Positions 1-30,138 of a stretch of 64,000 bases of DNA are shown one piece after another. Each line of letters begins with the position of its first letter. Position 1 is the first letter of the stretch. This DNA comes from Eledone cirrhosa (taxonomy: Eukaryota). The stretch covers positions 125,364,001 to 125,428,000 of the forward strand of contig OZ024743.1 of assembly GCA_964016885.1 (NCBI GenBank), written 5' to 3'. The translations under genes were made by a program, and so were the position numbers. A model generated the notes under the pieces. That model was given only the letters and a program-made list of their open reading frames with translations, did not search any database and had not been told where the DNA came from.

Positions 1-20
1 ACTTCTTGTTGAAATATTGT

Positions 21-182
21 TCACGTTCTTGGGGAATCTTTTGAGTCTTGATTAGAAGTAAAGTCATAAGGCTTCCACCAGTTTGAAAACTGTAAGACTT
101 TCTGTCGTTGAACTTCAAACTTCTCATTTCGGCTTTTACGGAAAAGATACGGATCAGCATCAATCATACCTCCAATGATTTC
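21..182 (-). other. CWF19L2: Duplicated CWF19L2 terminal exon, intact
   Basis: Acceptor, open frame and stop retained. Confidence 0.9.
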
Positions 183-598
183 CTGTGTTCCAAGAAGTAG
201 ACGGTAAAAATATATCAGAAACTATCATTATCAAAGTACTTGGAAGTAAACAAATTTGTCAATATATACATATTTTTTAAATGGTAAATACATATTTGTA
301 CAAAAACTGTACAAGATTCAGTGGAAAGTGTGTAAATAAATAAACATACTGACAAATGTAAAAATATCTTTTTTTTTACAGACTAAAATAGAGTGAATAT
401 GCTGGCTCAAGTTTCCATTCTAGTTGGAGTCACCCTCAGAAACTGTGTACAACTCTATCATTCCACAGAGAAATACTCAATTAATGACTTTATAAGCAAA
501 CCAAATAAGGCAGATAAGCAAATTGGAGATGCTGATAGTTAATTCAATTAGATAGTAAATTATGTAAAAAGCAGATGAAATATAGAATAAATATATAT

Positions 599-940
599 GA
601 AGGCACATGGCCTAGTGGTTAGAGCATTGGCCTTGCAATCGAAAGGTTGTGAGTTCAATTCTCAGACCGGGTGATGTGTTGTTTCCTTGTGCAAGACACT
701 TTATTTCACATTGCTCCAGTTTACTCAGCTGTAGAAATGAGATGATAGGGACTGGGGTCCATATCATTCCACTGCAAAGTAGTCATAGAGGTCCCACGGC
801 AAAAAAGCACCCAGCACTCACTGTAAATGAGATTGGTGTTAGCAAGGGCATCCAGCTGTAGAAATCAAGCCAGAATCAGTTCCCGTCCCACCCTTGCAAG
901 CAGGGAAAAAGCGGACGTAAAATGAAATGATGATGATGAT
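599..940 (+). mobile_element. tRNA-derived SINE with an RTE-type (ATG)n tail (one per array unit; first shown)
   Basis: A box TGGCCTAGTGG, B box GAGTTCAATTC, CORE-like ccttgtgcaagacacttta, and tail cccacccttgcaagcagggaaaaagcggacgtaaaatgaaatgatgatgat. Confidence 0.88.
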
Positions 941-1127
941 ATTTTCATGGTAAATGCTTTATCCCACATAATTATTTCACATAATATCGAATCTATGAGA
1001 TTTTGAAAGTATTTATTTTGAGAACAATACCTTAACATCAGTTTGAATGACCAGTTACAGCCAGTTTCAACAGAAAGAGGTAGAGAATTCTGGCCGGTTT
1101 GGGCCAGTTTAAACATTAAAGGGTTAA
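940..1127. mobile_element. One-ended fragment of a TTAA/piggyBac-type MITE at each unit junction (first shown)
   Basis: Matches the internal part and right end (taaagggttaa) of the full MITE at 59291-59511. The left TIR is missing. Confidence 0.8.
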
Positions 1128-1304
1128 ACCATAGTGTACAAGAAATCAAATGAAATAGAGGTGCAGAGACACTTGTGTCCCCCCCCCCCTAGCTGATACA
1201 TTCACTAGTATTTATGGTTTTCACAAAGATGTTCATTCAAACTGGTGAAATTTCATGTGGTAAGAATACAATCAACATCTGTTGTGCAGTAAAATTATAC
1301 TATC

Positions 1305-1582
1305 ACCTAGTCAAGTTTAATATCCAAGCAGCAGCCAATGGTTACCTGGTATTGCAACAAACAAAATAGTCAAGTGTCAATTCCAAGCAACAATCAAAGT
1401 TTGTTTATTACCTAGTATGTTGACAAACCACATAGATATATCTCATTTCCAACCAATAAAGGATTTTTATCATATAGTTTGGCAAAAAAAACACATAATC
1501 AAGCCTCATTTCCAACCAACAAAGGCTATTTATGATCTAGTATGGTTACAAACCACATAGTCAAGTCTCATTTCCAACCAAA
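1305..1582. repeat. Degenerate ~62-bp tandem repeat, 4-5 copies (in every unit)
   Basis: Recurrent tagtcaagtctcatttccaaccaacaaagg...ctagtatg...acaaaccaca. Confidence 0.75.
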
Positions 1583-2347
1583 CATTTAGGAGGCATGTTA
1601 GGTGTAACAAATACAAATAAACAATCCCACTAGTTTTGAAAGATTTATCAACTTAATATCTCTTAATTGTATAGCCAGCCTGAAGGTTACCATGAAAACA
1701 TTTATCATAGAAGATAAAATTCTATGAATTACTAGAGCCAAGTTTAACATGATGACAAAATATAGTTCTGGGTTTCATCCTACTATGCAGCACACTAGAC
1801 AAATGTCTTCTACTTTAAATTTGGGTTGGCCAAAGCTTTACAAGTGAATTTCGATAGATAGAAACTGTCTGGCAGCCATCAGAGAAAACATTCCGGTTTT
1901 AGGATGATAGACTAAATATGTTGCCCCAGTTAACATCATTATCTGGCCCTTAGGTACATTTAGCAGCACACACTGTTGTAAATATTCAGGCTAGGTCTCC
2001 AATATGATTCTTCTCTTCCTCTTACCAGTCTCGGAAGAACCTGCAAAGAAATAATAAGCATTCCCTTTTTTTCCTCAGACAAAACATAAATAAATAAAAA
2101 GGAAATTTGTTATAAAATTGTTTTTATTGTATAATTTAAAATATATTTATACATATATATATTGGTATTTGTTGTTGTTGTTGGTGACATACACGCAGTC
2201 TAAATATTTATTCATGGTGTTTCCTCTAATATTGTAAAGAGTCCACTCTGATACAAAGAATTCATTTCTCACATCACCATGTGTATAGAGACTACCACAA
2301 ATAAATCAAGAATTGCCACACTGCAATTACAACTTTGATGAATTGCA

Positions 2348-2383
<36 letters not shown>

Positions 2384-2390
<7 letters not shown>

Positions 2391-2711
2391 ATACTTTGGG
2401 AAGGTCATGCTGACAATAAAAACACACACACCTGTTGGTTTTCACTTCAATTTATTATAAATTTCCAGTTGGTTGGTTGCTTGATTCAATAACCAGATGG
2501 TTGTTTATATATTGTCAAAGCTCTTTCGTCACACATACTGTGACTGGGTTTTTATTTTGTGTCTCTCCTTTGTTCTGTCCTACACCATCTTGTTTTTGTG
2601 TGTTGACAACACACAAACCAACCAACTAGCTGGAAATTTATAAATTCAAGTGAAAACCAACAGGTGCATGTACTGTTATTTGCAGCAAGACACTCCCAAA
2701 CTATAACAATA
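2384..2711. mobile_element. ~330-bp MITE-like element with ~95-bp imperfect TIRs in the putative 3'UTR (every unit; proximal copy 25361-25704)
   Basis: tattgttatactttggga...cacctgttggttttcacttcaatt...ataaatttccag is the reverse complement of ctggaaatttataaattcaagtgaaaaccaacaggtg...tcccaaactataacaata. It abuts a (TA)n tract. Confidence 0.8.
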
Positions 2712-2877
2712 TCTGTTTCAACACATGCTTTCAGATAAGAAATCTTGCAAAACGAATTCAAAAACGAAGTATATATATGTGTGTGTGTGTGATGCCCCAG
2801 CATGGACTCAGCCTGTCAGCTGGAATATGTAATAGAATAATATATACATATATATATACTTCTTGTTGAAATATTGT

Positions 2878-3039
2878 TCACGTTCTTGGGGAATCTTTTG
2901 AGTCTTGATTAGAAGTAAAGTCATAAGGCTGCCACCAGTTTGAAAACTGTAAGACTTTCTGTCGTTGAACTTCAAACTTCTCATTTCGGCTTTTACGGAA
3001 AAGATACGGATCAGCATCAATCATACCTCCAATGATTTC
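2878..3039 (-). other. CWF19L2: Duplicated CWF19L2 terminal exon, intact, K>Q variant (WWQPYDF)
   Basis: aggctgccacc replaces aggcttccacc. Confidence 0.9.
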
Positions 3040-5204
3040 CTGTGTTCCAAGAAGTAGACGGTAAAAATATATCAGAAACTATCATTATCAAAGTACTTGG
3101 AAGTAAACAAATTTGTCAATATATACATATTTTTTAAATGGTAAATACATATTTGTACAAAAACTGTACAAGATTCAGTGGAAAGTGTGTAAATAAATAA
3201 ACATACTGACAAATGTAAAAATATCTTTTTTTTTACAGACTAAAATAGAGTGAATATGCTGGCTCAAGTTTCCATTCTAGTTGGAGTCACCCTCAGAAAC
3301 TGTGTACAACTCTATCATTCCACAGAGAAATACTCAATTAATGACTTTATAAGCAAACCAAATAAGGCAGATAAGCAAATTGGAGATGCTGATAGTTAAT
3401 TCAATTAGATAGTAAATTATGTAAAAAGCAGATGAAATATAGAATAAATATATATATGAAGGCACATGGCTTAGTGGTTAGAGCATTGGCCTTGCAATCG
3501 AAAGGTTGTGAGTTCAATTCTCAGACCGGGTGATGTGTTGTTTCCTTGTGCAAGACACTTTATTTCACATTGCTCCAGTTTACTCAGCTGTAGAAATGAG
3601 ATGATAGGGACTGGGGTCCATATCATTCCACTGCAAAGTAGTCATAGAGGTGCCACGGCAAAAAAGCACCCAGCACTCACTGTAAATGAGATTGGTGTTA
3701 GCAAGGGCATCCAGCTGTAGAAATCAAGCCAGAATCAGTTCCCGTCCCACCCTTGCAAGCAGGGAAAAAGCGGACGTAAAATGAAATGATGATGATGATA
3801 TTTTCATGGTAAATGCTTTATCCCACATAATTATTTCACATAATATCGAATCTATGAGATTTTGAAAGTATTTATTTTGAGAACAATACCTTAACATCAG
3901 TTTGAATGACCAGTTACAGCCAGTTTCAACAGAAAGAGGTAGAGAATTCTGGCCGGTTTGGGCCAGTTTAAACATTAAAGGGTTAAACCATAGTGTACAA
4001 GAAATCAAATGAAATAGAGGTGCAGAGACACTTGTGTCCCCCCCTAGCTGATACATTCACTAGTATTTATGGTTTTCACAAAGATGTTCATTCAAACTGG
4101 TGAAATTTCATGTGGTAAGAATACAATCAACATCTGTTGTGCAGTAAAATTATACTATCACCTAGTCAAGTTTAATATCCAAGCAGCAGCCAATGGTTAC
4201 CTGGTATTGCAACAAACAAAATAGTCAAGTCTCAATTCCAAGCAACAATCAAAGTGTGTTTATTACCTAGTATGTTGACAAACCACATAGATATATCTCA
4301 TTTCCAACCAATAAAGGATTTTTATCATATAGTTTGGCAAAAAAAACACATAATCAAGCCTCATTTCCAACCAACAAAGGCTATTTATGATCTAGTATGG
4401 TTACAAACCACATAGTCAAGTCTCATTTCCAACCAAACATTTAGGAGGCATGTTAGGTGTAACAAATACAAATAAACAATCCCACTAGTTTTGAAAGATT
4501 TATCAACTTAATATCTCTTAATTGTATAGCCAGCCTGAAGGTTACCATGAAAACATTTATCATAGAAGATAAAATTCTATGAATTACTAGAGCCAAGTTT
4601 AACATGATGACAAAATATAGTTCTGGGTTTCATCCTACTATGCAGCACACTAGACAAATGTCTTCTACTTTAAATTTGGGTTGGCCAAAGCTTTACAAGT
4701 GAATTTCGATAGATAGAAACTGTCTGGCAGCCATCAGAGAAAACATTCCGGTTTTAGGATGATAGACTAAATATGTTGCCCCAGTTAACATCATTATCTG
4801 GCCCTTAGGTACATTTAGCAGCACACACTGTTGTAAATATTCAGGCTAGGTCTCCAATATGATTCTTCTCTTCCTCTTACCAGTCTCGGAAGAACCTGCA
4901 AAGAAATAATAAGCATTCCCTTTTTTTCCTCAGACAAAACATAAATAAATAAAAAGGAAATTTGTTATAAAATTGTTTTTATTGTATAATTTAAAATATA
5001 TTTATACATATATATATTGGTATTTGTTGTTGTTGTTGGTGACATACACGCAGTCTAAATATTTATTCATGGTGTTTCCTCTAATATTGTAAAGAGTCCA
5101 CTCTGATACAAAGAATTCATTTCTCACATCACCATGTGTATAGAGACTACCACAAATAAATCAAGAATTGCCACACTGCAATTACAACTTTGATGAATTG
5201 CATA

Positions 5205-5244
<40 letters not shown>

Positions 5245-5731
5245 ATACTTTGGGAAGGTCATGCTGACAATAAAAACACACACACCTGTTGGTTTTCACT
5301 TCAATTTATTATAAATTTCCAGTTGGTTGGTTGCTTGATTCAATAACCAGATGGTTGTTTATATATTGTCAAAGCTCTTTCGTCACACATACTGTGACTG
5401 GGTTTTTATTTTGTGTCTCTCCTTTGTTCTGTCCTACACCATCTTGTTTTTGTGTGTTGACAACACACAAACCAACCAACTAGCTGGAAATTTATAAATT
5501 CAAGTGAAAACCAACAGGTGCATGTACTGTTATTTGCAGCAAGACACTCCCAAACTATAACAATATCTGTTTCAACACATGCTTTCAGATAAGAAATCTT
5601 GCAAAACGAATTCAAAAACGAAGTATATATATGTGTGTGTGTGTGATGCCCCAGCATGGACTCAGCCTGTCAGCTGGAATATGTAATAGAATAATATATA
5701 CATATATATATACTTCTTGTTGAAATATTGT

Positions 5732-5893
5732 TCACGTTCTTGGGGAATCTTTTGAGTCTTGATTAGAAGTAAAGTCATAAGGCTGCCACCAGTTTGAAAA
5801 CTGTAAGACTTTCTGTCGTTGAACTTCAAACTTCTCATTTCGGCTTTTACGGAAAAGATACGGATCAGCATCAATCATACCTCCAATGATTTC
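5732..5893 (-). other. CWF19L2: Duplicated CWF19L2 terminal exon, intact, K>Q variant (WWQPYDF)
   Basis: aggctgccacc replaces aggcttccacc. Confidence 0.9.
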
Positions 5894-8060
5894 CTGTGTT
5901 CCAAGAAGTAGACGGTAAAAATATATCAGAAACTATCATTATCAAAGTACTTGGAAGTAAACAAATTTGTCAATATATACATATTTTTTAAATGGTAAAT
6001 ACATATTTGTACAAAAACTGTACAAGATTCAGTGGAAAGTGTGTAAATAAATAAACATACTGACAAATGTAAAAATATCTTTTTTTTTACAGACTAAAAT
6101 AGAGTGAATATGCTGGCTCAAGTTTCCATTCTAGTTGGAGTCACCCTCAGAAACTGTGTACAACTCTATCATTCCACAGAGAAATACTCAATTAATGACT
6201 TTATAAGCAAACCAAATAAGGCAGATAAGCAAATTGGAGATGCTGATAGTTAATTCAATTAGATAGTAAATTATGTAAAAAGCAGATGAAATATAGAATA
6301 AATATATATATGAAGGCACATGGCTTAGTGGTTAGAGCATTGGCCTTGCAATCGAAAGGTTGTGAGTTCAATTCTCAGACCGGGTGATGTGTTGTTTCCT
6401 TGTGCAAGACACTTTATTTCACATTGCTCCAGTTTACTCAGCTGTAGAAATGAGATGATAGGGACTGGGGTCCATATCATTCCACTGCAAAGTAGTCATA
6501 GAGGTGCCACGGCAAAAAAGCACCCAGCACTCACTGTAAATGAGATTGGTGTTAGCAAGGGCATCCAGCTGTAGAAATCAAGCCAGAATCAGTTCCCGTC
6601 CCACCCTTGCAAGCAGGGAAAAAGCGGACGTAAAATGAAATGATGATGATGATATTTTCATGGTAAATGCTTTATCCCACATAATTATTTCACATAATAT
6701 CGAATCTATGAGATTTTGAAAGTATTTATTTTGAGAACAATACCTTAACATCAGTTTGAATGACCAGTTACAGCCAGTTTCAACAGAAAGAGGTAGAGAA
6801 TTCTGGCCGGTTTGGGCCAGTTTAAACATTAAAGGGTTAAACCATAGTGTACAAGAAATCAAATGAAATAGAGGTGCAGAGACACTTGTGTCCCCCCCTA
6901 GCTGATACATTCACTAGTATTTATGGTTTTCACAAAGATGTTCATTCAAACTGGTGAAATTTCATGTGGTAAGAATACAATCAACATCTGTTGTGCAGTA
7001 AAATTATACTATCACCTAGTCAAGTTTAATATCCAAGCAGCAGCCAATGGTTACCTGGTATTGCAACAAACAAAATAGTCAAGTCTCAATTCCAAGCAAC
7101 AATCAAAGTTTGTTTATTACCTAGTATGTTGACAAACCACATAGATATATCTCATTTCCAACCAACAAAGGATTTTTATCATATAGTATGGCAAAAAAAA
7201 ACACATAATCACGCCTCATTTCCAACCAACAAAGGCTATTTATGATCTAGTATGGTTACAAACCACATAGTCAAGTTTCATTTCCAACCAAACATTTAGG
7301 AGGCATGTTAGGTGTAACAAATACAAATAAACAATCCCACTAGTTTTGAAAGATTTATCAACTTAATATCTCTTAATTGTATAGCCAGCCTGAAGGTTAC
7401 CATGAAAACATTTATCATAGAAGATAAAATTCTATGAATTACTAGAGCCAAGTTTAACATGATGACAAAATATAGTTCTGGGTTTCATCCTACTATGCAG
7501 CACACTAGACAAATGTCTTCTACTTTAAATTTGGGTTGGCCAAAGCTTTACAAGTGAATTTCGATAGATAGAAACTGTCTGGCAGCCATCAGAGAAAACA
7601 TTCCGGTTTTAGGATGATAGACTAAATATGTTGCCCCAGTTAACATCATTATCTGGCCCTTAGGTACATTTAGCAGCACACACTGTTGTAAATATTCAGG
7701 CTAGGTCTCCAATATGATTCTTCTCTTCCTCTTACCAGTCTCGGAAGAACCTGCAAAGAAATAATAAGCATTCCCTTTTTTTCCTCAGACAAAACATAAA
7801 TAAATAAAAAGGAAATTTGTTATAAAATTGTTTTTATTGTATAATTTAAAATATATTTATACATATATATATTGGTATTTGTTGTTGTTGTTGGTGACAT
7901 ACACGCAGTCTAAATATTTATTCATGGTGTTTCCTCTAATATTGTAAAGAGTCCACTCTGATACAAAGAATTCATTTCTCACATCACCATGTGTATAGAG
8001 ACTACCACAAATAAATCAAGAATTGCCACACTGCAATTACAACTTTGATGAATTGCATAA

Positions 8061-8120
<60 letters not shown>

Positions 8121-8607
8121 ATACTTTGGGAAGGTCATGCTGACAATAAAAACACACACACCTGTTGGTTTTCACTTCAATTTATTATAAATTTCCAGTT
8201 GGTTGGTTGCTTGATTCAATAACCAGATGGTTGTTTATATATTGTCAAAGCTCTTTCGTCACACATACTGTGACTGGGTTTTTATTTTGTGTCTCTCCTT
8301 TGTTCTGTCCTACACCATCTTGTTTTTGTGTGTTGACAACACACAAACCAACCAACTAGCTGGAAATTTATAAATTCAAGTGAAAACCAACAGGTGCATG
8401 TACTGTTATTTGCAGCAAGACACTCCCAAACTATAACAATATCTGTTTCAACACATGCTTTCAGATAAGAAATCTTGCAAAACGAATTCAAAAACGAAGT
8501 ATATATATGTGTGTGTGTGTGATGCCCCAGCATGGACTCAGCCTGTCAGCTGGAATATGTAACAGAATAATATATACATATATATATACTTCTTGTTGAA
8601 ATATTGT

Positions 8608-8769
8608 TCACGTTCTTGGGGAATCTTTTGAGTCTTGATTAGAAGTAAAGTCATAAGGCTTCCACCAGTTTGAAAACTGTAAGACTTTCTGTCGTTGAAC
8701 TTCAAACTTCTCATTACGGCTTTTACGGAAAAGATACGTATCAGCATCAATCATACCTCCAATAATTTC
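8608..8769 (-). other. CWF19L2: Duplicated CWF19L2 terminal exon, intact, P>T variant (DADTY)
   Basis: aagatacgta replaces aagatacgga. Also carries a synonymous CGA>CGT and two alleles otherwise found only in the proximal copy. Confidence 0.9.
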
Positions 8770-10935
8770 CTGTGTTCCAAGAAGTAGAGGGTAAAAATAT
8801 ATCAGAAACTATCATTATCAAAGTACTTGGAAGTAAACAAATTTGTCAATATATACATATTTTTTAAATGGTAAATACATATTTGTACAAAAACTGTACA
8901 AGATTCAGTGGAAAGTGTGTAAATAAATAAACATACTGACAAATGTAAAAATATCTTTTTTTTTACAGACTAAAATAGAGTGTATATGCTGGCTCAAGTT
9001 TCCATTCTAGTTGGAGTCACCCTCAGAAACTGTGTACAACTCTATCATTCCACAGAGAAATACTCAATTAATGACTTTATAAGCAAACCAAATAAGGCAG
9101 ATAAGCAAATTGGAGATGCTGATAGTTAATTCAATTAGATAGTAAATTATGTAAAAAGCAGATGAAATATAGAATAAATATATATATGAAGGCACATGGC
9201 TTAGTGGTTAGAGCATTGGCCTTGCAATCGAAAGGTTGTGAGTTCAATTCTCAGACCGGGTGATGTGTTGTTTCCTTGTGCAAGACACTTTATTTCACAT
9301 TGCTCCAGTTTACTCAGCTGTAGAAATGAGATGATAGGGACTGGGGTCCATATCATTCCACTGCAAAGTAGTCATAGAGGTGCCACGGCAAAAAAGCACC
9401 CAGCACTCACTGTAAATGAGATTGGTGTTAGCAAGGGCATCCAGCTGTAGAAATCAAGCCAGAATCAGTTCCCGTCCCACCCTTGCAAGCAGGGAAAAAG
9501 CGGACGTAAAATGAAATGATGATGATGATATTTTCATGGTAAATGCTTTATCCCACATAATTATTTCACATAATATCGAATCTATGAGATTTTGAAAGTA
9601 TTTATTTTGAGAACAATACCTTAACATCAGTTTGAATGACCAGTTACAGCCAGTTTCAACAGAAAGAGGTAGAGAATTCTGGCCGGTTTGGGCCAGTTTA
9701 AACATTAAAGGGTTAAACCATAGTGTACAAGAAATCAAATGAAATAGAGGTGCAGAGACACTTGTGTCCCCCCCCTAGCTGATACATTCACTAGTATTTA
9801 TGGTTTTCACAAAGATGTTCATTCAAACTGGTGAAATTTCATGTGGTAAGAATACAATCAACATCTGTTGTGCAGTAAAATTATACTATCACCTAGTCAA
9901 GTTTAATATCCAAGCAGCAGCCAATGGTTACCTGGTATTGCAACAAACAAAATAGTCAAGTGTCAATTCCAAGCAACAATCAAAGTTTGTTTATTACCTA
10001 GTATGTTGACAAACCACATAGATATATCTCATTTCCAACCAATAAAGGATTTTTATCATATAGTATGGCAAAAAAAACTCATAATCAAGCCTCATTTCCA
10101 ACCAACAAAGGCTATTTATGATCTAGTATGGTTACAAACCACATAGTCAAGTCTCATTTCCAACCAAACATTTAGGAGGCATGTTAGGTGTAACAAATAC
10201 AAATAAACAATCCCACTAGTTTTGAAAGATTTATCAACTTAATATCTCTTAATTGTATAGCCAGCCTGAAGGTTACCATGAAAACATTTATCATAGAAGA
10301 TAAAATTCTATGAATTACTAGAGCCAAGTTTAACATGATGACAAAATATAGTTCTGGGTTTCATCCTACTATGCAGCACACTAGACAAATGTCTTCTACT
10401 TTAAATTTGGGTTGGCCAAAGCTTTACAAGTGAATTTCGATAGATAGAAACTGTCTGGCAGCCATCAGAGAAAACATTCCGGTTTTAGGATGATAGACTA
10501 AATATGTTGCCCCAGTTAACATCATTATCTGGCCCTTAGGTACATTTAGCAGCACACACTGTTGTAAATATTCAGGCTAGGTCTCCAATATGATTCTTCT
10601 CTTCCTCTTACCAGTCTCGGAAGAACCTGCAAAGAAATAATAAGCATTCCCTTTTTTTCCTCAGACAAAACATAAATAAATAAAAAGGAAATTTGTTATA
10701 AAATTGTTTTTATTGTATAATTTAAAATAAATTTATACATATATATATTGGTATTTGTTGTTGTTGTTGGTGACATACACGCAGTCTAAATATTTATTCA
10801 TGGTGTTTCCTCTAATATTGTAAAGAGTCCACTCTGATACAAAGAATTCATTTCTCACATCACCATGTGTATAGAGACTACCACAAATAAATCAAGAATT
10901 GCCACACTGCAATTACAACTTTGATGAATTGCATA

Positions 10936-10975
<40 letters not shown>

Positions 10976-11462
10976 ATACTTTGGGAAGGTCATGCTGACA
11001 ATAAAAACACACACACCTGTTGGTTTTCACTTCAATTTATTATAAATTTCCAGTTGGTTGGTTGCTTGATTCAATAACCAGATGGTTGTTTATATATTGT
11101 CAAAGCTCTTTCGTCACACATACTGTGACTGGGTTTTTATTTTGTGTCTCTCCTTTGTTCTGTCCTACACCATCTTGTTTTTGTGTGTTGACAACACACA
11201 AACCAACCAACTAGCTGGAAATTTATAAATTCAAGTGAAAACCAACAGGTGCATGTACTGTTATTTGCAGCAAGACACTCCCAAACTATAACAATATCTG
11301 TTTCAACACATGCTTTCAGATAAGAAATCTTGCAAAACGAATTCAAAAACGAAGTATATATATGTGTGTGTGTGTGATGCCCCAGCATGGACTCAGCCTG
11401 TCAGCTGGAATATGTAATAGAATAATATATACATATATATATACTTCTTGTTGAAATATTGT

Positions 11463-11624
11463 TCACGTTCTTGGGGAATCTTTTGAGTCTTGATTAGAAG
11501 TAAAGTCATAAGGCTTCCACCAGTTTGAAAACTGTAAGACTTTCTGTCGTTGAACTTCAAACTTCTCATTTCGGCTTTTACGGAAAAGATACGGATCAGC
11601 ATCAATCATACCTCCAATGATTTC
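11463..11624 (-). other. CWF19L2: Duplicated CWF19L2 terminal exon, intact
   Basis: Acceptor, open frame and stop retained. Confidence 0.9.
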
Positions 11625-13801: not shown

Positions 13802-13858
<57 letters not shown>

Positions 13859-14345
13859 ATACTTTGGGAAGGTCATGCTGACAATAAAAACACACACACC
13901 TGTTGGTTTTCACTTCAATTTATTATAAATTTCCAGTTGGTTGGTTGCTTGATTCAATAACCAGATGGTTGTTTATATATTGTCAAAGCTCTTTCGTCAC
14001 ACATACTGTGACTGGGTTTTTATTTTGTGTCTCTCCTTTGTTCTGTCCTACACCATCTTGTTTTTGTGTGTTGACAACACACAAACCAACCAACTAGCTG
14101 GAAATTTATAAATTCAAGTGAAAACCAACAGGTGCATGTACTGTTATTTGCAGCAAGACACTCCCAAACTATAACAATATCTGTTTCAACACATGCTTTC
14201 AGATAAGAAATCTTGCAAAACGAATTCAAAAACGAAGTATATATATGTGTGTGTGTGTGATGCCCCAGCATGGACTCAGCCTGTCAGCTGGAATATGTAA
14301 TAGAATAATATATACATATATATATACTTCTTGTTGAAATATTGT

Positions 14346-14507
14346 TCACGTTCTTGGAGAATCTTTTGAGTCTTGATTAGAAGTAAAGTCATAAGGCTTC
14401 CACCAGTTTGAAAACTGTAAGACTTTCTGTCGTTGAACTTCAAACTTCTCATTTCGGCTTTTACGGAAAAGATACGGATCAGCATCAATCATACCTCCAA
14501 TGATTTC
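14346..14507 (-). other. CWF19L2: Duplicated CWF19L2 terminal exon, intact (synonymous TCC>TCT)
   Basis: Acceptor, open frame and stop retained. Confidence 0.9.
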
Positions 14508-16675
14508 CTGTGTTCCAAGAAGTAGACGGTAAAAATATATCAGAAACTATCATTATCAAAGTACTTGGAAGTAAACAAATTTGTCAATATATACATATTT
14601 TTTAAATGGTAAATACATATTTGTACAAAAACTGTACAAGATTCAGTGGAAAGTGTGTAAATAAATAAACATACTGACAAATGTAAAAATATCTTTTTTT
14701 TTACAGACTAAAATAGAGTGAATATGCTGGCTCAAGTTTCCATTCTAGTTGGAGTCACCCTCAGAAACTGTGTACAACTCTATCATTCCACAGAGAAATA
14801 CTCAATTAATGACTTTATAAGCAAACCAAATAAGGCAGATAAGCAAATTGGAGATGCTGATAGTTAATTCAATTAGATAGTAAATTATGTAAAAAGCAGA
14901 TGAAATATAGAATAAATATATATATGAAGGCACATGGCTTAGTGGTTAGAGCATTGGCCTTGCAATCGAAAGGTTGTGAGTTCAATTCTCAGACCGGGTG
15001 ATGTGTTGTTTCCTTGTGCAAGACACTTTATTTCACATTGCTCCAGTTTACTCAGCTGTAGAAATGAGATGATAGGGACTGGGGTCCATATCATTCCACT
15101 GCAAAGTAGTCATAGAGGTGCCACGGCAAAAAAGCACCCAGCACTCACTGTAAATGAGATTGGTGTTAGCAAGGGCATCCAGCTGTAGAAATCAAGCCAG
15201 AATCAGTTCCCGTCCCACCCTTGCAAGCAGGGAAAAAGCGGACGTAAAATGAAATGATGATGATGATATTTTCATGGTAAATGCTTTATCCCACATAATT
15301 ATTTCACATAATATCGAATCTATGAGATTTTGAAAGTATTTATTTTGAGAACAATACCTTAACATCAGTTTGAATGACCAGTTACAGCCAGTTTCAACAG
15401 AAAGAGGTAGAGAATTCTGGCCGGTTTGGGCCAGTTTAAACATTAAAGGGTTAAACCATAGTGTACAAGAAATCAAATGAAATAGAGGTGCAGAGACACT
15501 TGTGTCCCCCCCCCCCTAGCTGATACATTCACTAGTATTTATGGTTTTCACAAAGATGTTCATTCAAACTGGTGAAATTTCATGTGGTAAGAATACAATC
15601 AACATCTGTTGTGCAGTAAAATTATACTATCACCTAGTCAAGTTTAATATCCAAGCAGCAGCCAATGGTTACCTGGTATTGCAACTAACAAAATAGTCAA
15701 GTCTCAATTCCAAGCAACAATCAAAGTTTGTTTATTACCTAGTATGTTGACAAACCACATAGATATATCTCATTTCCAACCAACAAAGGATTTTTATCAT
15801 ATCGTATGGCAAAAAAAAACACATAATCACGCCTCATTTCCAACCAACAAAGGCTATTTATGATCTAGTATGGTTACAAACCACATAGTCAAGTTTCATT
15901 TCCAACCAAACATTTAGGAGGCATGTTAGGTGTAACAAATACAAATAAACAATCCCACTAGTTTTGAAAGATTTATCAACTTAATATCTCTTAATTGTAT
16001 AGCCAGCCTGAAGGTTACCATGAAAACATTTATCATAGAAGATAAAATTCTATGAATTACTAGAGCCAAGTTTAACATGATGACAAAATATAGTTCTGGG
16101 TTTCATCCTACTATGCAGCACACTAGACAAATGTCTTCTACTTTAAATTTGGGTTGGCCAAAGCTTTACAAGTGAATTTCGATAGATAGAAACTGTCTGG
16201 CAGCCATCAGAGAAAACATTCCGGTTTTAGGATGATAGACTAAATATGTTGCCCCAGTTAACATCATTATCTGGCCCTTAGGTACATTTAGCAGCACACA
16301 CTGTTGTAAATATTCAGGCTAGGTCTCCAATATGATTCTTCTCTTCCTCTTACCAGTCTCGGAAGAACCTGCAAAGAAATAATAAGCATTCCCTTTTTTT
16401 CCTCAGACAAAACATAAATAAATAAAAAGGAAATTTGTTATAAAATTGTTTTTATTGTATAATTTAAAATATATTTATACATATATATATTGGTATTTGT
16501 TGTTGTTGTTGGTGACATACACGCAGTCTAAATATTTATTCATGGTGTTTCCTCTAATATTGTAAAGAGTCCACTCTGATACAAAGAATTCATTTCTCAC
16601 ATCACCATGTGTATAGAGACTACCACAAATAAATCAAGAATTGCCACACTGCAATTACAACTTTGATGAATTGCA

Positions 16676-16736
<61 letters not shown>

Positions 16737-17223
16737 ATACTTTGGGAAGGTCATGCTGACAATAAAAACACACACACCTGTTGGTTTTCACTTCAATTTA
16801 TTATAAATTTCCAGTTGGTTGGTTGCTTGATTCAATAACCAGATGGTTGTTTATATATTGTCAAAGCTCTTTCGTCACACATACTGTGACTGGGTTTTTA
16901 TTTTGTGTCTCTCCTTTGTTCTGTCCTACACCATCTTGTTTTTGTGTGTTGACAACACACAAACCAACCAACTAGCTGGAAATTTATAAATTCAAGTGAA
17001 AACCAACAGGTGCATGTACTGTTATTTGCAGCAAGACACTCCCAAACTATAACAATATCTGTTTCAACACATGCTTTCAGATAAGAAATCTTGCAAAACG
17101 AATTCAAAAACGAAGTATATATATGTGTGTGTGTGTGATGCCCCAGCATGGACTCAGCCTGTCAGCTGGAATATGTAATAGAATAATATATACATATATA
17201 TATACTTCTTGTTGAAATATTGT

Positions 17224-17385
17224 TCACGTTCTTGGAGAATCTTTTGAGTCTTGATTAGAAGTAAAGTCATAAGGCTTCCACCAGTTTGAAAACTGTAAGA
17301 CTTTCTGTCGTTGAACTTCAAACTTCTCATTTCGGCTTTTACGGAAAAGATACGGATCAGCATCAATCATACCTCCAATGATTTC
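17224..17385 (-). other. CWF19L2: Duplicated CWF19L2 terminal exon, intact (synonymous TCC>TCT)
   Basis: Acceptor, open frame and stop retained. The ttggaga allele is shared with the copy at 14346. Confidence 0.9.
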
Positions 17386-19563
17386 CTGTGTTCCAAGAAG
17401 TAGACGGTAAAAATATATCAGAAACTATCATTATCAAAGTACTTGGAAGTAAACAAATTTGTCAATATATACATATTTTTTAAATGGTAAATACATATTT
17501 GTACAAAAACTGTACAAGATTCAGTGGAAAGTGTGTAAATAAATAAACATACTGACAAATGTAAAAATATCTTTTTTTTTACAGACTAAAATAGAGTGAA
17601 TATGCTGGCTCAAGTTTCCATTCTAGTTGGAGTCACCCTCAGAAACTGTGTACAACTCTATCATTCCACAGAGAAATACTCAATTAATGACTTTATAAGC
17701 AAACCAAATAAGGCAGATAAGCAAATTGGAGATGCTGATAGTTAATTCAATTAGATAGTAAATTATGTAAAAAGCAGATGAAATATAGAATAAATATATA
17801 TGAAGGCACATGGCCTAGTGGTTAGAGCATTGGCCTTGCAATCGAAAGGTTGTGAGTTCAATTCTCAGACCGGGTGATGTGTTGTTTCCTTGTGCAAGAC
17901 ACTTTATTTCACATTGCTCCAGTTTACTCAGCTGTAGAAATGAGATGATAGGGACTGGGGTCCATATCATTCCACTGCAAAGTAGTCATAGAGGTCCCAC
18001 GGCAAAAAAGCACCCAGCACTCACTGTAAATGAGATTGGTGTTAGCAAGGGCATCCAGCTGTAGAAATCAAGCCAGAATCAGTTCCCGTCCCACCCTTGC
18101 AAGCAGGGAAAAAGCGGACGTAAAATGAAATGATGATGATGATATTTTCATGGTAAATGCTTTATCCCACATAATTATTTCACATAATATCGAATCTATG
18201 AGATTTTGAAAGTATTTATTTTGAGAACAATACCTTAACATCAGTTTGAATGACCAGTTACAGCCAGTTTCAACAGAAAGAGGTAGAGAATTCTGGCCGG
18301 TTTGGGCCAGTTTAAACATTAAAGGGTTAAACCATAGTGTACAAGAAATCAAATGAAATAGAGGTGCAGAGACACTTGTGTCCCCCCCCCCCCCCCCCCC
18401 CCCCCTAGCTGATACATTCACTAGTATTTATGGTTTTCACAAAGATGTTCATTCAAACTGGTGAAATTTCATGTGGTAAGAATACAATCAACATCTGTTG
18501 TGCAGTAAAATTATACTATCACCTAGTCAAGTTTAATATCCAAGCAGCAGCCAATGGTTACCTGGTATTGCAACAAACAAAATAGTCAAGTCTCAATTCC
18601 AAGCAACAATCAAAGTTTGTTTATTACCTAGTATGTTGACAAACCACATAGATATATCTCATTTCCAACCAATAAAGGATTTTTATCATATAGTTTGGCA
18701 AAAAAAACACATAATCAAGCCTCATTTCCAACCAACAAAGGCTATTTATGATCTAGTATGGTTACAAACCACATAGTCAAGTCTCATTTCCAACCAAACA
18801 TTTAGGAGGCATGTTAGGTGTAACAAATACAAATAAACAATCCCACTAGTTTTGAAAGATTTATCAACTTAATATCTCTTAATTGTATAGCCAGCCTGAA
18901 GGTTACCATGAAAACATTTATCATAGAAGATAAAATTCTATGAATTACTAGAGCCAAGTTTAACATGATGACAAAATATAGTTCTGGGTTTCATCCTACT
19001 ATGCAGCACACTAGACAAATGTCTTCTACTTTAAATTTGGGTTGGCCAAAGCTTTACAAGTGAATTTCGATAGATAGAAACTGTCTGGCAGCCATCAGAG
19101 AAAACATTCCGGTTTTAGGATGATAGACTAAATATGTTGCCCCAGTTAACATCATTATCTGGCCCTTAGGTACATTTAGCAGCACACACTGTTGTAAATA
19201 TTCAGGCTAGGTCTCCAATATGATTCTTCTCTTCCTCTTACCAGTCTCGGAAGAACCTGCAAAGAAATAATAAGCATTCCCTTTTTTTCCTCAGACAAAA
19301 CATAAATAAATAAAAAGGAAATTTGTTATAAAATTGTTTTTATTGTATAATTTAAAATATATTTATACATATATATATTGGTATTTGTTGTTGTTGTTGG
19401 TGACATACACGCAGTCTAAATATTTATTCATGGTGTTTCCTCTAATATTGTAAAGAGTCCACTCTGATACAAAGAATTCATTTCTCACATCACCATGTGT
19501 ATAGAGACTACCACAAATAAATCAAGAATTGCCACACTGCAATTACAACTTTGATGAATTGCA

Positions 19564-19606
<43 letters not shown>

Positions 19607-20093
19607 ATACTTTGGGAAGGTCATGCTGACAATAAAAACACACACACCTGTTGGTTTTCACTTCAATTTATTATAAATTTCCAGTTGGTTGGTTGCTTGA
19701 TTCAATAACCAGATGGTTGTTTATATATTGTCAAAGCTCTTTCGTCACACATACTGTGACTGGGTTTTTATTTTGTGTCTCTCCTTTGTTCTGTCCTACA
19801 CCATCTTGTTTTTGTGTGTTGACAACACACAAACCAACCAACTAGCTGGAAATTTATAAATTCAAGTGAAAACCAACAGGTGCATGTACTGTTATTTGCA
19901 GCAAGACACTCCCAAACTATAACAATATCTGTTTCAACACATGCTTTCAGATAAGAAATCTTGCAAAACGAATTCAAAAACGAAGTATATATATGTGTGT
20001 GTGTGTGATGCCCCAGCATGGACTCAGCCTGTCAGCTGGAATATGTAATAGAATAATATATACATATATATATACTTCTTGTTGAAATATTGT

Positions 20094-20255
20094 TCACGTT
20101 CTTGGGGAATCTTTTGAGTCTTGATTAGAAGTAAAGTCATAAGGCTTCCACCAGTTTGAAAACTGTAAGACTTTCTGTCGTTGAACTTCAAACTTCTCAT
20201 TTCGGCTTTTACGGAAAAGATACGGATCAGCATCAATCATACCTCCAATGATTTC
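20094..20255 (-). other. CWF19L2: Duplicated CWF19L2 terminal exon, intact
   Basis: Acceptor, open frame and stop retained. Confidence 0.9.
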
Positions 20256-22426
20256 CTGTGTTCCAAGAAGTAGACGGTAAAAATATATCAGAAACTATCA
20301 TTATCAAAGTACTTGGAAGTAAACAAATTTGTCAATATATACATATTTTTTAAATGGTAAATACATATTTGTACAAAAACTGTACAAGATTCAGTGGAAA
20401 GTGTGTAAATAAATAAACATACTGACAAATGTAAAAATATCTTTTTTTTTACAGACTAAAATAGAGTGAATATGCTGGCTCAAGTTTCCATTCTAGTTGG
20501 AGTCACCCTCAGAAACTGTGTACAACTCTATCATTCCACAGAGAAATACTCAATTAATGACTTTATAAGCAAACCAAATAAGGCAGATAAGCAAATTGGA
20601 GATGCTGATAGTTAATTCAATTAGATAGTAAATTATGTAAAAAGCAGATGAAATATAGAATAAATATATATATGAAGGCACATGGCTTAGTGGTTAGAGC
20701 ATTGGCCTTGCAATCGAAAGGTTGTGAGTTCAATTCTCAGACCGGGTGATGTGTTGTTTCCTTGTGCAAGACACTTTATTTCACATTGCTCCAGTTTACT
20801 CAGCTGTAGAAATGAGATGATAGGGACTGGGGTCCATATCATTCCACTGCAAAGTAGTCATAGAGGTGCCACGGCAAAAAAGCACCCAGCACTCACTGTA
20901 ATGAGATTGGTGTTAGCAAGGGCATCCAGCTGTAGAAATCAAGCCAGAATCAGTTCCCGTCCCACCCTTGCAAGCAGGGAAAAAGCGGACGTAAAATGAA
21001 ATGATGATGATGATATTTTCATGGTAAATGCTTTATCCCACATAATTATTTCACATAATATCGAATCTATGAGATTTTGAAAGTATTTATTTTGAGAACA
21101 ATACCTTAACATCAGTTTGAATGACCAGTTACAGCCAGTTTCAACAGAAAGAGGTAGAGAATTCTGGCCGGTTTGGGCCAGTTTAAACATTAAAGGGTTA
21201 AACCATAGTGTACAAGAAATCAAATGAAATAGAGGTGCAGAGACACTTGTGTCCCCCCCCCCCCCCCCTAGCTGATACATTCACTAGTATTTATGGTTTT
21301 CACAAAGATGTTCATTCAAACTGGTGAAATTTCATGTGGTAAGAATACAATCAACATCTGTTGTGCAGTAAAATTATACTATCACCTAGTCAAGTTTAAT
21401 ATCCAAGCAGCAGCCAATGGTTACCTGGTATTGCAACAAACAAAATAGTCAAGTGTCAATTCCAAGCAACAATCAAAGTTTGTTTATTACCTAGTATGTT
21501 GACAAACCACATAGATATATCTCATTTCCAACCAATAAAGGATTTTTATCATATAGTATGGCAAAAAAAACTCATAATCAAGCCTCATTTCCAACCAACA
21601 AAGGCTATTTATGATCTAGTATGGTTACAAACCACATAGTCAAGTCTCATTTCCAACCAAACATTTAGGAGGCATGTTAGGTGTAACAAATACAAATAAA
21701 CAATCCCACTAGTTTTGAAAGATTTATCAACTTAATATCTCTTAATTGTATAGCCAGCCTGAAGGTTACCATGAAAACATTTATCATAGAAGATAAAATT
21801 CTATGAATTACTAGAGCCAAGTTTAACATGATGACAAAATATAGTTCTGGGTTTCATCCTACTATGCAGCACACTAGACAAATGTCTTCTACTTTAAATT
21901 TGGGTTGGCCAAAGCTTTACAAGTGAATTTCGATAGATAGAAACTGTCTGGCAGCCATCAGAGAAAACATTCCGGTTTTAGGATGATAGACTAAATATGT
22001 TGCCCCAGTTAACATCATTATCTGGCCCTTAGGTACATTTAGCAGCACACACTGTTGTAAATATTCAGGCTAGGTCTCCAATATGATTCTTCTCTTCCTC
22101 TTACCAGTCTCGGAAGAACCTGCAAAGAAATAATAAGCATTCCCTTTTTTTCCTCAGACAAAACATAAATAAATAAAAAGGAAATTTGTTATAAATTTGT
22201 TTTTATTGTATAATTTAAAATAAATTTATACATATATATATTGGTATTTGTTGTTGTTGTTGGTGACATACACGCAGTCTAAATATTTATTCATGGTGTT
22301 TCCTCTAATATTGTAAAGAGTCCACTCTGATACAAAGAATTCATTTCTCACATCACCATGTGTATAGAGACTACCACAAATAAATCAAGAATTGCCACAC
22401 TGCAATTACAACTTTGATGAATTGCA

Positions 22427-22481
<55 letters not shown>

Positions 22482-22984
22482 ATACTTTGGGAAGGTCATG
22501 CTGGCAATAAAAACACACACGCCTGTTGGTTTTCACTTCAATTTATTATAAATTTCCAGTTGGTTGGTTGCTTGATTCAATAACCAGATGGTTGTTTATA
22601 TATTGTCAAATCTCTTTCATCACACATACTGTGACCTCCTCAGTGACTGGGTTTTTATTTTGTGTCTCTCCTTTGTTCTGTCCTACACCATCTTGTTTTT
22701 GTGTGTTGACAACACACGAACCAACCAACTAACTAGCTGGAAATTTATAAATTCAAGTGAAAACCAACAGGTGCATGTGCTGTTATTTGCAGCAAGATAC
22801 TCCCAAACTATAACAATATCTGTTTCAACACATGCTTTCAGATAAGAAATCTTGCAAAACGAATTCAAAAACGAAGTATATATATGTGTGTGTGTGTGAT
22901 GCCCCAGCATGGACTCAGCCTGTCAGCTGGAATATGTAATAGAATAATATATACATATATATATACTTCTTGTTGAAATATTGT

Positions 22985-23146
22985 TCACGTTCTTGGGGAA
23001 TCTTTTGAGTCTTGATTAGAAGTAAAGTCATAAGGCTTCCACCAGTTTGAAAACTGTAAGACTTTCTGTCGTTGAACTTCAAACTTCTCATTTCGGCTTT
23101 TACGGAAAAGATACGGATCAGCATCAATCATACCTCCAATGATTTC
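22985..23146 (-). other. CWF19L2: Duplicated CWF19L2 terminal exon, intact, same peptide as the proximal copy
   Basis: Acceptor, 53 codons and TGA retained. Confidence 0.9.
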
Positions 23147-25316
23147 CTGTGTTCCAAGAAGTAGACGGTAAAAATATATCAGAAACTATCATTATCAAAG
23201 TACTTGGAAGTAAACAAATTTGTCAATATATACATATTTTTTAAATGGTAAATACATATTTGTACAAAAACTGTACAAGATTCAGTGGAAAGTGTGTAAA
23301 TAAATAAACATACTGACAAATGTAAAAATATCTTTTTTTTTACAGACTAAAATAGAGTGAATATGCTGGCTCAAGTTTCCATTCTAGTTGGAGTCACCCT
23401 CAGAAACTGTGTACAACTCTATCATTCCACAGAGAAATACTCAATTAATGACTTTATAAGCAAACCAAATAAGGCAGATAAGCAAATTGGAGATGCTGAT
23501 AGTTAATTCAATTAGATAGTAAATTATGTAAAAAGCAGATGAAATATAGAATAAATATATATGAAGGCACATGGCTTAGTGGTTAGAGCATTGGCCTTGC
23601 AATCGAAAGGTTGTGAGTTCAATTCTCAGACCGGGTGATGTGTTGTTTCCTTGTGCAAGACACTTTATTTCACATTGCTCCAGTTTACTCAGCTGTAGAA
23701 ATGAGATGATAGGGACTGGGGTCCATATCATTCCACTGCAAAGTAGTCATAGAGGTGCCACGGCAAAAAAGCACCCAGCACTCACTGTAATGAGATTGGT
23801 GTTAGCAAGGGCATCCAGCTGTAGAAATCAAGCCAGAATCAGTTCCCGTCCCACCCTTGCAAGCAGGGAAAAAGCGGACGTAAAATGAAATGATGATGAT
23901 GATATTTTCATGGTAAATGCTTTATCCCACATAATTATTTCACATAATATCGAATCTATGAGATTTTGAAAGTATTTATTTTGAGAACAATACCTTAACA
24001 TCAGTTTGAATGACCAGTTACAGCCAGTTTCAACAGAAAGAGGTAGAGAATTCTGGCCGGTTTGGGCCAGTTTAAACATTAAAGGGTTAAACCATAGTGT
24101 ACAAGAAATCAAATGAAATAGAGGTGCAGAGACACTTGTGTCCCCCCCCCCCCCCCCCTAGCTGATACATTCACTAGTATTTATGGTTTTCACAAAGATG
24201 TTCATTCAAACTGGTGAAATTTCATGTGGTAAGAATACAATCAACATCTGTTGTGCAGTAAAATTATACTATCACCTAGTCAAGTTTAATATCCAAGCAG
24301 CAGCCAATGGTTACCTGGTATTGCAACAAACAAAATAGTCAAGTGTCAATTCCAAGCAACAATCAAAGTTTGTTTATTACCTAGTATGTTGACAAACCAC
24401 ATAGATATATCTCATTTCCAACCAATAAAGGATTTTTATCATATAGTATGGCAAAAAAAACTCATAATCAAGCCTCATTTCCAACCAACAAAGGCTATTT
24501 ATGATCTAGTATGGTTACAAACCACATAGTCAAGTCTCATTTCCAACCAAACATTTAGGAGGCATGTTAGGTGTAACAAATACAAATAAACAATCCCACT
24601 AGTTTTGAAAGATTTATCAACTTAATATCTCTTAATTGTATAGCCAGCCTGAAGGTTACCATGAAAACATTTATCATAGAAGATAAAATTCTATGAATTA
24701 CTAGAGCCAAGTTTAACATGATGACAAAATATAGTTCTGGGTTTCATCCTACTATGCAGCACACTAGACAAATGTCTTCTACTTTAAATTTGGGTTGGCC
24801 AAAGCTTTACAAGTGAATTTCGATAGATAGAAACTGTCTGGCAGCCATCAGAGAAAACATTCCGGTTTTAGGATGATAGACTAAATATGTTGCCCCAGTT
24901 AACATCATTATCTGGCCCTTAGGTACATTTAGCAGCACACACTGTTGTAAATATTCAGGCTAGGTCTCCAATATGATTCTTCTCTTCCTCTTACCAGTCT
25001 CGGAAGAACCTGCAAAGAAATAATAAGCATTCCCTTTTTTTCCTCAGACAAAACATAAATAAATAAAAAGGAAATTTGTTATAAATTTGTTTTTATTGTA
25101 TAATTTAAAATAAATTTATACATATATATATTGGTATTTGTTGTTGTTGTTGGTGACATACACGCAGTCTAAATATTTATTCATGGTGTTTCCTCTAATA
25201 TTGTAAAGAGTCCACTCTGATACAAAGAATTCATTTCTCACATCACCATGTGTATAGAGACTACCACAAATAAATCAAGAATTGCCACACTGCAATTACA
25301 ACTTTGATGAATTGCA

Positions 25317-25367
<51 letters not shown>

Positions 25368-25872
25368 ATACTTTGGGAAGGTCATGCTGGCAATAAAAAC
25401 ACACACGCCTGTTGGTTTTCACTTCAATTTATTATAAATTTCCAGTTGGTTGGTTGCTTGATTCAATAACCAGATGGTTGTTTATATATTGTCAAATCTC
25501 TTTCATCACACATACTGTGACCTCCTCAGTGACTGGGTTTTTATTTTGTGTCTCTCCTTTGTTCTGTCCTACACCATCTTGTTTTTGTGTGTTGACAACA
25601 CACGAACCAACCAACTAACTAGCTGGAAATTTATAAATTCAAGTGAAAACCAACAGGTGCATGTGCTGTTATTTGCAGCAAGATACTCCCAAACTATAAC
25701 AATATCTGTTTCAACACATGCTTTCAGATAAGAAATCTTGCAAAACGAATTCAAAAACGAAGTATATATATGTGTGTGTGTGTGATGCCCCAGAATGGAC
25801 TCAGCCTGTCAGCTAGAATATGTAATAGAATAATATATACATATATATATATACTTCTTGTTGAAATATTGT

Positions 25873-26034
25873 TCACGTTCTTGGGGAATCTTTTGAGTCT
25901 TGATTAGAAGTAAAGTCATAAGGCTTCCACCAGTTTGAAAACTGTAAGACTTTCTGTCGTTGAACTTCAAACTTCTCATTTCGGCTTTTACGGAAAAGAT
26001 ACGGATCAGCATCAATCATACCTCCAATAATTTC
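25873..26034 (-). CDS. CWF19L2: CWF19L2 terminal coding exon, gene-proximal copy
   Basis: cttcttggaacacag|GAA. Translates EIIGGMIDADPYLFRKSRNEKFEVQRQKVLQFSNWWKPYDFTSNQDSKDSPRT* (EIIGGM and WWKPYDFT are CWF19L2 C-terminal hallmarks), in frame with the previous exon. Confidence 0.93.
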   Translation of the reverse strand, partial: EIIGGMIDADPYLFRKSRNEKFEVQRQKVLQFSNWWKPYDFTSNQDSKDSPRT

Positions 26035-26357
26035 CTGTGTTCCAAGAAGTAGAGGGTAAAAATATATCAGAAACTATCATTATCAAAGTACTTGGAAGTA
26101 TTTTACTGACAAATGTAAAAATATCTTTTTTTTTACAGACTAAAATAGAGGGAATATTCTGGCTCAAGTTTCCATTCTAGTTGGAGTCACCCTCAGAAAC
26201 TGTGTACAACTCTATCATTCCACAGAGAAATACTCAATTAATGACTTTATAAGCAAACCAAATATGGCAGATAAGCAAATTGGAGATGCTGATAGTTAAT
26301 TCAATTAGATAGTAAATTATGTAAAAAGCAGATGAAATATAGAATAAATATATATAT

Positions 26358-26703
26358 GGAGGCACATGGCTTAGTGGTTAGAGCATTGGCCTTGCAATCG
26401 AAAGGTTGTGAGTTCAATTCTCAGACCGGGTGATGTGTTGTTTCCTTGAGCAAGACACTTTATTTCACATTGCTCCAGTTTACTCAGCTGTAGAAATGAG
26501 ATGATAGGTACTGGGGTCCCTATCATTCCACTGCAAAGTGGTCGTGCAGGTGCCACGGCAAAAAAGCACCCAGCACTCACTGTAAATGAGGTTGGTGTTA
26601 GGAAGGGCATCCAGCTGTAGAAATCAAGCCAGAATCAGTTCCCGTCTCACCCTTGCAAGCAGGGAAAAAGCGTACGTAAAATGAAATGATGATGATGATG
26701 ATG
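26358..26703 (+). mobile_element. tRNA-derived SINE marking the right boundary of the array
   Basis: Same insertion site as the unit SINEs but about a dozen differences. Array homology stops in its (ATG)n tail. Confidence 0.88.
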
Positions 26704-26861
26704 AAATGTATAGAAGCAGTACAAGATTTAACTGAAGCTGTATAAATATGTAAATAAAAACACTGACAAATATAAACATGTATCTTTTTTATGCATTTCT
26801 TCATGGATCGAAAAAGTATGAACTATCTGACTCATTTTCCATCCACAAAGAAATACATTAA

Positions 26862-30036: not shown

Positions 30037-30138
30037 CTTGCCAAAATTAATTGAAAATCTTTTCTCGTCTTCTATCGCATGAGCAAAACCACCTTGAAGA
30101 CCAAAATTAACACTGAAGAATGGGAATCCTTTAGGAAT
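30037..30138 (-). CDS. CWF19L2: CWF19L2 penultimate coding exon (34 codons, phase 0/0)
   Basis: Flanked by tttatag|ATT and AAG|gttagt. Translates [34 protein letters not shown] (GGFAH.IED motif). Not in the ORF track; translated by hand. Confidence 0.93.

Follow-up and report, generated by a model that had tools for sequence, protein, structure and literature searches.

Human D4Z4 is a macrosatellite in which each unit carries a whole open reading frame (ORF) and the distal unit gives a stable messenger RNA (mRNA). Amplification may start by template switching at microhomology and extend by unequal exchange. At the 3' ends of Drosophila genes, the sections of PMC6191721 used here describe tandem cassette clusters with a docking site and selectors in Pip, PGRP-LC and CG42235. 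It has been proposed that competing pairings arise when one arm of an intronic stem is duplicated, and unannotated tandem exon duplications have been surveyed next to exons and in untranslated regions (UTRs) of human, fly and worm, but not of molluscs (the parts of PMC9013439 consulted). Here we describe a locus in Eledone cirrhosa, within a 64,000-nucleotide stretch of contig OZ024743.1 (the window, positions 125,364,001 to 125,428,000; window numbering is used below). A 2.87-kb piece of the splicing-factor gene CWF19L2, which runs from late in the last intron through the last exon into the 3' region, is repeated 17 times, and we consider this to be probably a recent neutral tandem amplification in which the proximal exon is in use. 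No paper on this locus was found among the open-licence papers searched (for CWF19L2, octopus, macrosatellite and last-exon tandem duplication).

A previous reading of the letters of the window (the sequence-only reading) had claimed at least ten intact tandem copies of the last exon. Indeed, the minus strand of the window holds ten copies of the acceptor and exon, starting at 26034, 23146, 20255, 17385, 14507, 11624, 8769, 5893, 3039 and 182 with spacings of 2854-2891 base pairs (bp), and each encodes 53 codons and a TGA without a stop or frameshift. A search of the whole 3.0-Gb assembly extends the count to 17 full copies, with all 17 of the 17 candidates in a single head-to-tail run on the same chromosome sequence. 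Based on 50 kb of sequence added on the left side, the array consists of 17 units of 2800-2889 bp and a 426-bp partial unit (the stub), about 49 kb in total, and the stub ends 22,366 bases left of the window start, at 125341634 on the same contig. Whole-unit identity within the array is 97.8-100%, a repeat far beyond chance, and the AG acceptor, phase 0 and the open 53-codon frame with its TGA are found in 17/17 copies. The penultimate exon has one match in the assembly and is thus single-copy. The alleles proposed as diagnostic of particular copies were all located: T or C at exon base 6, DADT in unit 7, WWQP in units 8 and 9, and TCT in units 4 and 5. The array in the window is laid out as follows.

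1..26703, minus strand: portion of the tandem array inside the window (units 1-9 and some of unit 10), continuing leftward beyond the window
25873..26034, minus strand: exon copy 1, the proximal last exon (unit 1), with an exon haplotype unique among the 17
22985..23146, minus strand: exon copy 2, in a mosaic unit with an array-type 5' part and a unit-1-type middle
20094..20255, minus strand: exon copy 3, class A, peptide same as copy 1
17224..17385, minus strand: exon copy 4, class B, peptide same as copy 1
14346..14507, minus strand: exon copy 5, class B, peptide same as copy 1
11463..11624, minus strand: exon copy 6, peptide same as copy 1
8608..8769, minus strand: exon copy 7, class C, Pro to Thr at codon 11, in common with copies 16 and 17 outside the window
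5732..5893, minus strand: exon copy 8, Lys to Gln at codon 37
2878..3039, minus strand: exon copy 9, Lys to Gln at codon 37
21..182, minus strand: exon copy 10, peptide same as copy 1

The 3' part of the gene lies on the minus strand, with exons near 58712-58600, 46160-45995, 39107-39027, 30138-30037 and 26034-25873. Its identification as CWF19L2 is supported by Pfam, in which CwfJ_C_2 matches the last two exons (E 4e-9 and 3e-8) and CwfJ_C_1 an upstream exon (three of the four exons tested were matched), and by the 86-90% identity of the repeated exon to octopod CWF19-like protein 2 (three so named among five matches). The claim that every copy is compatible in phase with the donor at 30036 also holds, as exon 30138-30037 is in phase 0 and all 17 acceptors are in phase, and the AATAAA hexamers reported downstream are present at ~2123, 2451 and 2551. 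In the two of the 17 units in which hexamers were counted (units 1 and 2), six AATAAA and one ATTAAA follow the stop in each.

30037..30138, minus strand: CWF19L2 penultimate exon, single-copy, with a phase-0 donor at 30036
39027..39107, minus strand: CWF19L2 upstream exon, with others near 46160-45995 and 58712-58600
23980..25545, minus strand: 3' region of unit 1, with AATAAA at 25545, 25433, 25181, 25097, 24378 and 23980

Sequencing depth argues that the array is real. Four of the eight sequencing runs listed (X1, X4, X5 and X6) were used. Among the eight contig pieces listed for DNA run X1, three lie in non-repeat sequence of the unit, at depths of 68.4, 75.2 and 79.8, and three in the flanks, at 10.6, 8.9 and 7.6, which yields a length-weighted ratio of unit to flank of 8.3 (range 6.5-10.5). 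The deep contigs carry the letters of distal units (24345 at 75.2/75.2 and 25086 at 79.8/81.8). Single-copy depth had been named as the mark of an assembly artefact, and this outcome is against one. The depth rules out a single copy and equally a homozygous array of 17. Because the ratio is half of that for a homozygous 17, the array is likely either heterozygous or over-counted in the assembly; both 17 copies plus one on the other chromosome and 8-9 copies on each, with an over-long assembly, fit the value. In a related organism (organism B), the exon contig has a depth of 16.5, within the 5.8-17 of its 7 other listed contigs, which weakly suggests a single exon copy. Gaps in depth were not counted as absence, as X1 also has gaps over the exon. 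The listings of letter differences, joints and loose ends are dominated by dispersed repeats, with 24 contig pieces among those listed.

The copy represented in message was examined in run X4, 88 million letters from another sample of the same organism, whose RNA status is judged from the behaviour of its contig, as none of the listed runs is recorded as RNA. A 2845-nt contig (record 12, depth 18.4) crosses into the stretch at the exon boundary, at its own position 2523, approximately the position expected from 827 codons preceded by a short leader. It matches unit 1 with 0 differences, while a comparison with any of the other 16 units would leave 1 or 2. In the next contig (record 11, depth 22.8), three sites and a 4-bp indel are in the state of units 1 and 2. 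Neighbours in a 31-mer graph are expected to overlap by 30 bases, and the remaining 152 bases of record 12 would overlap record 11 by exactly this number only when the 2-base insertion peculiar to unit 1 is included. In this inferred-RNA run, the main message is of unit-1 type. The mRNA-like signal can be traced down to 24395, the end of a third contig (record 9, 24395-25071, depth 6.4) that stops shortly ahead of the AATAAA at 24378, as expected of a long 3' UTR. The suggestion of a very long repetitive 3' extension is thus unsupported, as the signal reaches only to this point; gaps beyond it prove nothing.

Two other features of this 3' region were noted. The X4 3'-UTR contig has two sense-strand A-to-G differences, at 25616 and 25620, that are in none of the assembled units; both lie within a predicted hairpin (25331-25872, -179 kcal/mol), and adenosine-to-inosine editing is possible, while the same letters occur in DNA contigs, probably from other repeat loci. 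A strong-looking AG acceptor at ~25010 with a 26-codon in-phase frame was rejected as an additional exon, with record 9 crossing it unspliced and no close match outside the array.

The exon copies differ little in what they encode and no less than their surroundings in how they vary. The peptide is identical in 12/17 copies; three have Pro to Thr and two have Lys to Gln, each a difference of one residue, at a Lys kept in 5/5 homologs and a Pro kept in 4/5. We counted 5 variable sites in 162 exon columns and 44 in 2680 other columns (2.8 expected in the exon), and among units 3-17 there are 5 exon sites where 1.4 are expected; these counts leave out 5 columns at microsatellite or deletion edges. 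Across the 17 units there is therefore no sign of purifying selection on the exon, which is no less variable than its flanks. The sequence-only reading had cautioned that intact frames alone do not prove selection, and this proved well founded: the probability of no stop in 5 random changes is 0.72, and that of no indel in the exon is 0.67, based on 7 indel events counted by hand with two long simple-repeat tracts excluded. Intact frames are expected by chance and carry no real signal.

The history of the array can be read in part from its joins and from the differences between units, for which the following features are needed.

26340..26703, plus strand: dispersed repeat with a transfer RNA (tRNA)-like head, 94% identical to 63175-63474, whose short triplet tail is the start of every unit; we take it to be like a short interspersed nuclear element (SINE), and its tRNA match of 28.1 bits is under the cut-off of 29
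23904..24090, minus strand: TTAA-flanked miniature transposon, presumably piggyBac-like, cut ~45 bp short of its end and forming the end of every unit
26851..27085, plus strand: a second copy of this miniature transposon, inverted, in the last intron outside the repeated units
26100..26104, minus strand: site of a 95-bp intron segment absent from unit 1 only; organism B, a relative, keeps at least its 3' part

The unit end sequence is the same in 17/17 units, and this one junction, both partners of which are truncated repeats, indicates a single founding event. Mean divergence is 0.30% among units 3-17 and 1.2% from those to unit 1. Units 3-17 fall into three classes, units 2 and 12 are mosaic, and 36/276 site pairs fail the four-gamete test, so the units have recombined. 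Divergence, classes and four-gamete failures together point to growth by unequal exchange and conversion. The differences between unit 1 and the other units are confined to its 5' 60%. Since organism B keeps at least part of the 95-bp segment, its loss from unit 1 is likely derived, and this private loss together with the 5' divergence makes unit 1 a likely recombinant with another allele rather than the founder.

At the distal end, the stub ends within the intron and is joined to an old high-copy repeat (its best 40 matches, itself excepted, are 79-83% identical). Four copies of this repeat elsewhere extend at least 100 bp further 5', and the repeat is therefore truncated at the join. Eight of 11 bases are alike at the distal join, and the joins share at most 2 exact bases. 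The remainder of the transposon and the original downstream flank are missing; thus, a deletion accompanied the amplification. We infer an origin in which one rearrangement rejoined the truncated miniature transposon to the SINE tail, the units were then multiplied by unequal exchange and mixed by it and by gene conversion, and a second join cut an 18th unit and fused it into the middle of the old repeat, at which point the original downstream flank was lost. The joins would have been made by template switching or end joining. Two inverted transposon arms closely bracket the amplified unit and, speculatively, may have helped to start the rearrangement. Helitron capture was considered and rejected: a helicase remnant with a CTAG end, which we take to be Helitron-like, lies ~1 kb past the array end (L003 6640-6157, minus strand), but the unit ends are without Helitron termini.

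Together, the locus has head-to-tail kilobase units of high identity, one junction, multiple copies in reads and exchange between units, all of them features of a young tandem, macrosatellite-like copy-number expansion. Among the readings put forward at the outset, a copy-number-variable locus or neutral duplication fits best, given the depth ratio, the lack of any sign of selection and, weakly, the apparently single-copy exon of organism B. Under neutral amplification, the donor at 30036 would meet the proximal acceptor first, and the transcript would be cleaved at poly(A) signals inside unit 1; the message would therefore normally end before copies 2-17 are reached, and the protein would be unchanged. 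The array may then be regarded as raw material: 49 kb of amplified gene end, likely segregating, in a splicing gene that is otherwise single-copy and whose protein stays as it was.

Several observations weigh against this explanation. Record 9 has two unexplained differences from unit 1, and over this region 6/17 units carry precisely two substitutions relative to unit 1, with no gap, so record 9 may come from distal copies. Contigs drop minor alleles, and distal use in about a quarter of transcripts could be hidden (a depth of 6 versus 18-23). The X4 sample, which is not recorded as RNA, may come from an animal that has no array or that expresses a normal allele. The individual sequenced in X1 may be the one that was assembled, in which case its depth tests the assembly and not the population, and restriction-site-associated DNA (RAD) run X6, from another individual, has a depth below ~2.3 in most non-repeat bins, too shallow for the array. 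The exon changes lean weakly towards constraint, with 3/5 synonymous versus 21% expected (P 0.07), in a test that rests on 5 changes and has low power. Finally, the intronic inverted repeat is predicted to pair with every unit end. Transcripts with only proximal alleles had been named as the sign of neutral duplication, and this expectation was borne out in part: the main contig is of unit-1 type, while record 9 has its two unexplained differences.

The predicted pairing is the basis of the first rival explanation, an incipient alternative-last-exon array, in which the transcript is read through, the intronic transposon pairs with the end of unit k and acceptor k+1 is used, with unselected minor isoforms as the product. 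The intronic copy (26851-27085) is 87% identical over 159 bp, inverted, to the ends of 17/17 units, with a predicted duplex of -209 kcal/mol compared to -53 +/- 6 for 100 shuffles; a second, weaker inverted match (73% over 100 bp) is only to the 16 distal units. The intronic copy would be the docking arm and the unit ends the selector arms, and pairing with the end of unit k is predicted to loop out units 1 to k. One inverted arm thus faces 17 partners with a strong predicted duplex, all 17 acceptors and frames are intact and in phase, and record 9 could be a trace of distal use. The layout resembles the docking sites and selectors of Drosophila PGRP-LC, CG42235 and Pip, in the sections of PMC6191721 used, and fits the proposal that a duplicated stem arm leads to competing pairings, in those of PMC9013439. 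However, the first partner arm is transcribed only ~2 kb after the proximal acceptor and after six AATAAA, and the dominant mRNA-like contig is that of unit 1. The transposon is also a high-copy repeat, with four other copies in ~65 kb of sequence beyond the array, and an inverted copy nearby would not be surprising by chance; the output would be only three peptides, one residue apart.

We therefore regard an incipient array as unlikely and the docking-site layout of the inverted transposon copies as accidental. Minor distal splicing through this predicted pairing is doubtful, and it is an outside chance that the array has been caught at birth, with one docking arm, 17 competing selector arms, some transcripts reaching distal exons and the array itself segregating. 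The terminal-exon choice proposed by the sequence-only reading is unsupported, as the main contig has proximal-only marks and at most three peptides could result; at a low level it may still occur, since contigs drop minor alleles and record 9 has its two unexplained differences. If distal copies were spliced, the locus would test whether a duplicated stem arm yields exon choice before selection, an idea raised in the consulted parts of PMC9013439, with a single-copy allele as a natural control.

A second rival, improbable to much the same degree, is that the array is real but over-counted, either because two haplotypes of ~8-9 units were merged or because the assembly path switches haplotype inside unit 1. 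The depth ratio and its range fit ~17 copies per diploid genome and not 34, and the 5' part of unit 1, 1.2% off and with a private deletion, looks as another allele might. But 17 + 1 copies predict a ratio of 9, an equally good fit; the order of unit classes has no repeated block and no second proximal-type unit; and the mosaic unit 2 requires real recombination. We give very little weight to the third, a selected and regulated terminal-exon choice that diversifies the CWF19L2 C-terminus or 3' UTR. No copy is broken and the excess of synonymous changes leans its way, but most copies encode one and the same peptide, variation in the exon is no lower than in its flanks, depth suggests that the array is not full-length on both chromosomes, and organism B looks single-copy. 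A pure assembly artefact of a single-copy exon is barely credible: near-identical tandem units are generally hard to assemble, but depth refutes it unless X1 coverage is strongly biased, the high-depth contigs carry distal alleles, and variants are shared among units in classes.

Other observations concern the unit and its surroundings. A region of ~530 bp (24536-25068 and counterparts) is invariant in all 17 units except at its two ends, and 24560-25080 is identical in 16/17. Each unit has a 63-bp minisatellite of ~3-4 decayed copies (24382-24550 in unit 1), and 8 variable sites of the array are in or near it. An Rfam scan of 21000-31000 gave 8 matches, all under curated cut-offs, and thus indicated no RNA gene within the unit. 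Immediately before the acceptor of the penultimate exon, 30191-30411 and 30943-31162 form a young 221-bp inverted repeat (99% identical), which, judged by its sequence, could fold the pre-mRNA into a long stem. Further into the gene are a GC-rich intron stretch at ~37100-38150 (minus strand), presumably resembling a Tc1/mariner-type transposase remnant, and a 31-bp minisatellite of ~22 copies at 41318-41996. Past the array end, a likely last coding exon (~83 codons) of a convergent gene lies ~4 kb away (L003 ~3530-3790, plus strand), and ~13 kb in this neighbouring gene region is largely AT simple repeat (L002 1-10000 and L003 1-2950). The ORFs of L002 are mostly simple repeats, and L001 contains 200 N.

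Compared to described systems, the array is like D4Z4 in its ~3-kb head-to-tail units, high identity, exchange between units and an intact coding sequence in each unit. It differs in that its unit is a promoterless gene end and in that the proximal unit appears to be used. Similarly, it is like a template-switch amplification in having one novel junction throughout, short or imperfect homology at the joins and an accompanying deletion, but the joins have at most 2 exact shared bases (8/11 alike at the distal end), so end joining fits equally well.

With the Drosophila clusters, as far as the sections of PMC6191721 and PMC9013439 used here describe them, the array has in common tandem terminal cassettes that follow a shared 5' part and have individual acceptors and poly(A) signals, and an upstream arm complementary to a partner before each later cassette, which here is only predicted. 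In those sections, the Drosophila cassettes are old, their pairings are conserved across species and tested by mutation, and their isoforms are expressed and different. In contrast, the units of the CWF19L2 array are 0.3% apart, 12/17 encode an identical peptide, the arms belong to a common transposon and the main mRNA-like contig holds only the proximal copy. Of the defining features tested, distinct C-terminal products and purifying selection on the cassettes are lacking, and we therefore do not class the array with clusters of the Pip/PGRP-LC type. The array is like the tandem exon duplications in the consulted parts of PMC9013439 in that an annotated exon has been copied in the gene's own 3' neighbourhood, and it differs from those described there in that a copy number of 17 and near identity are both high here.

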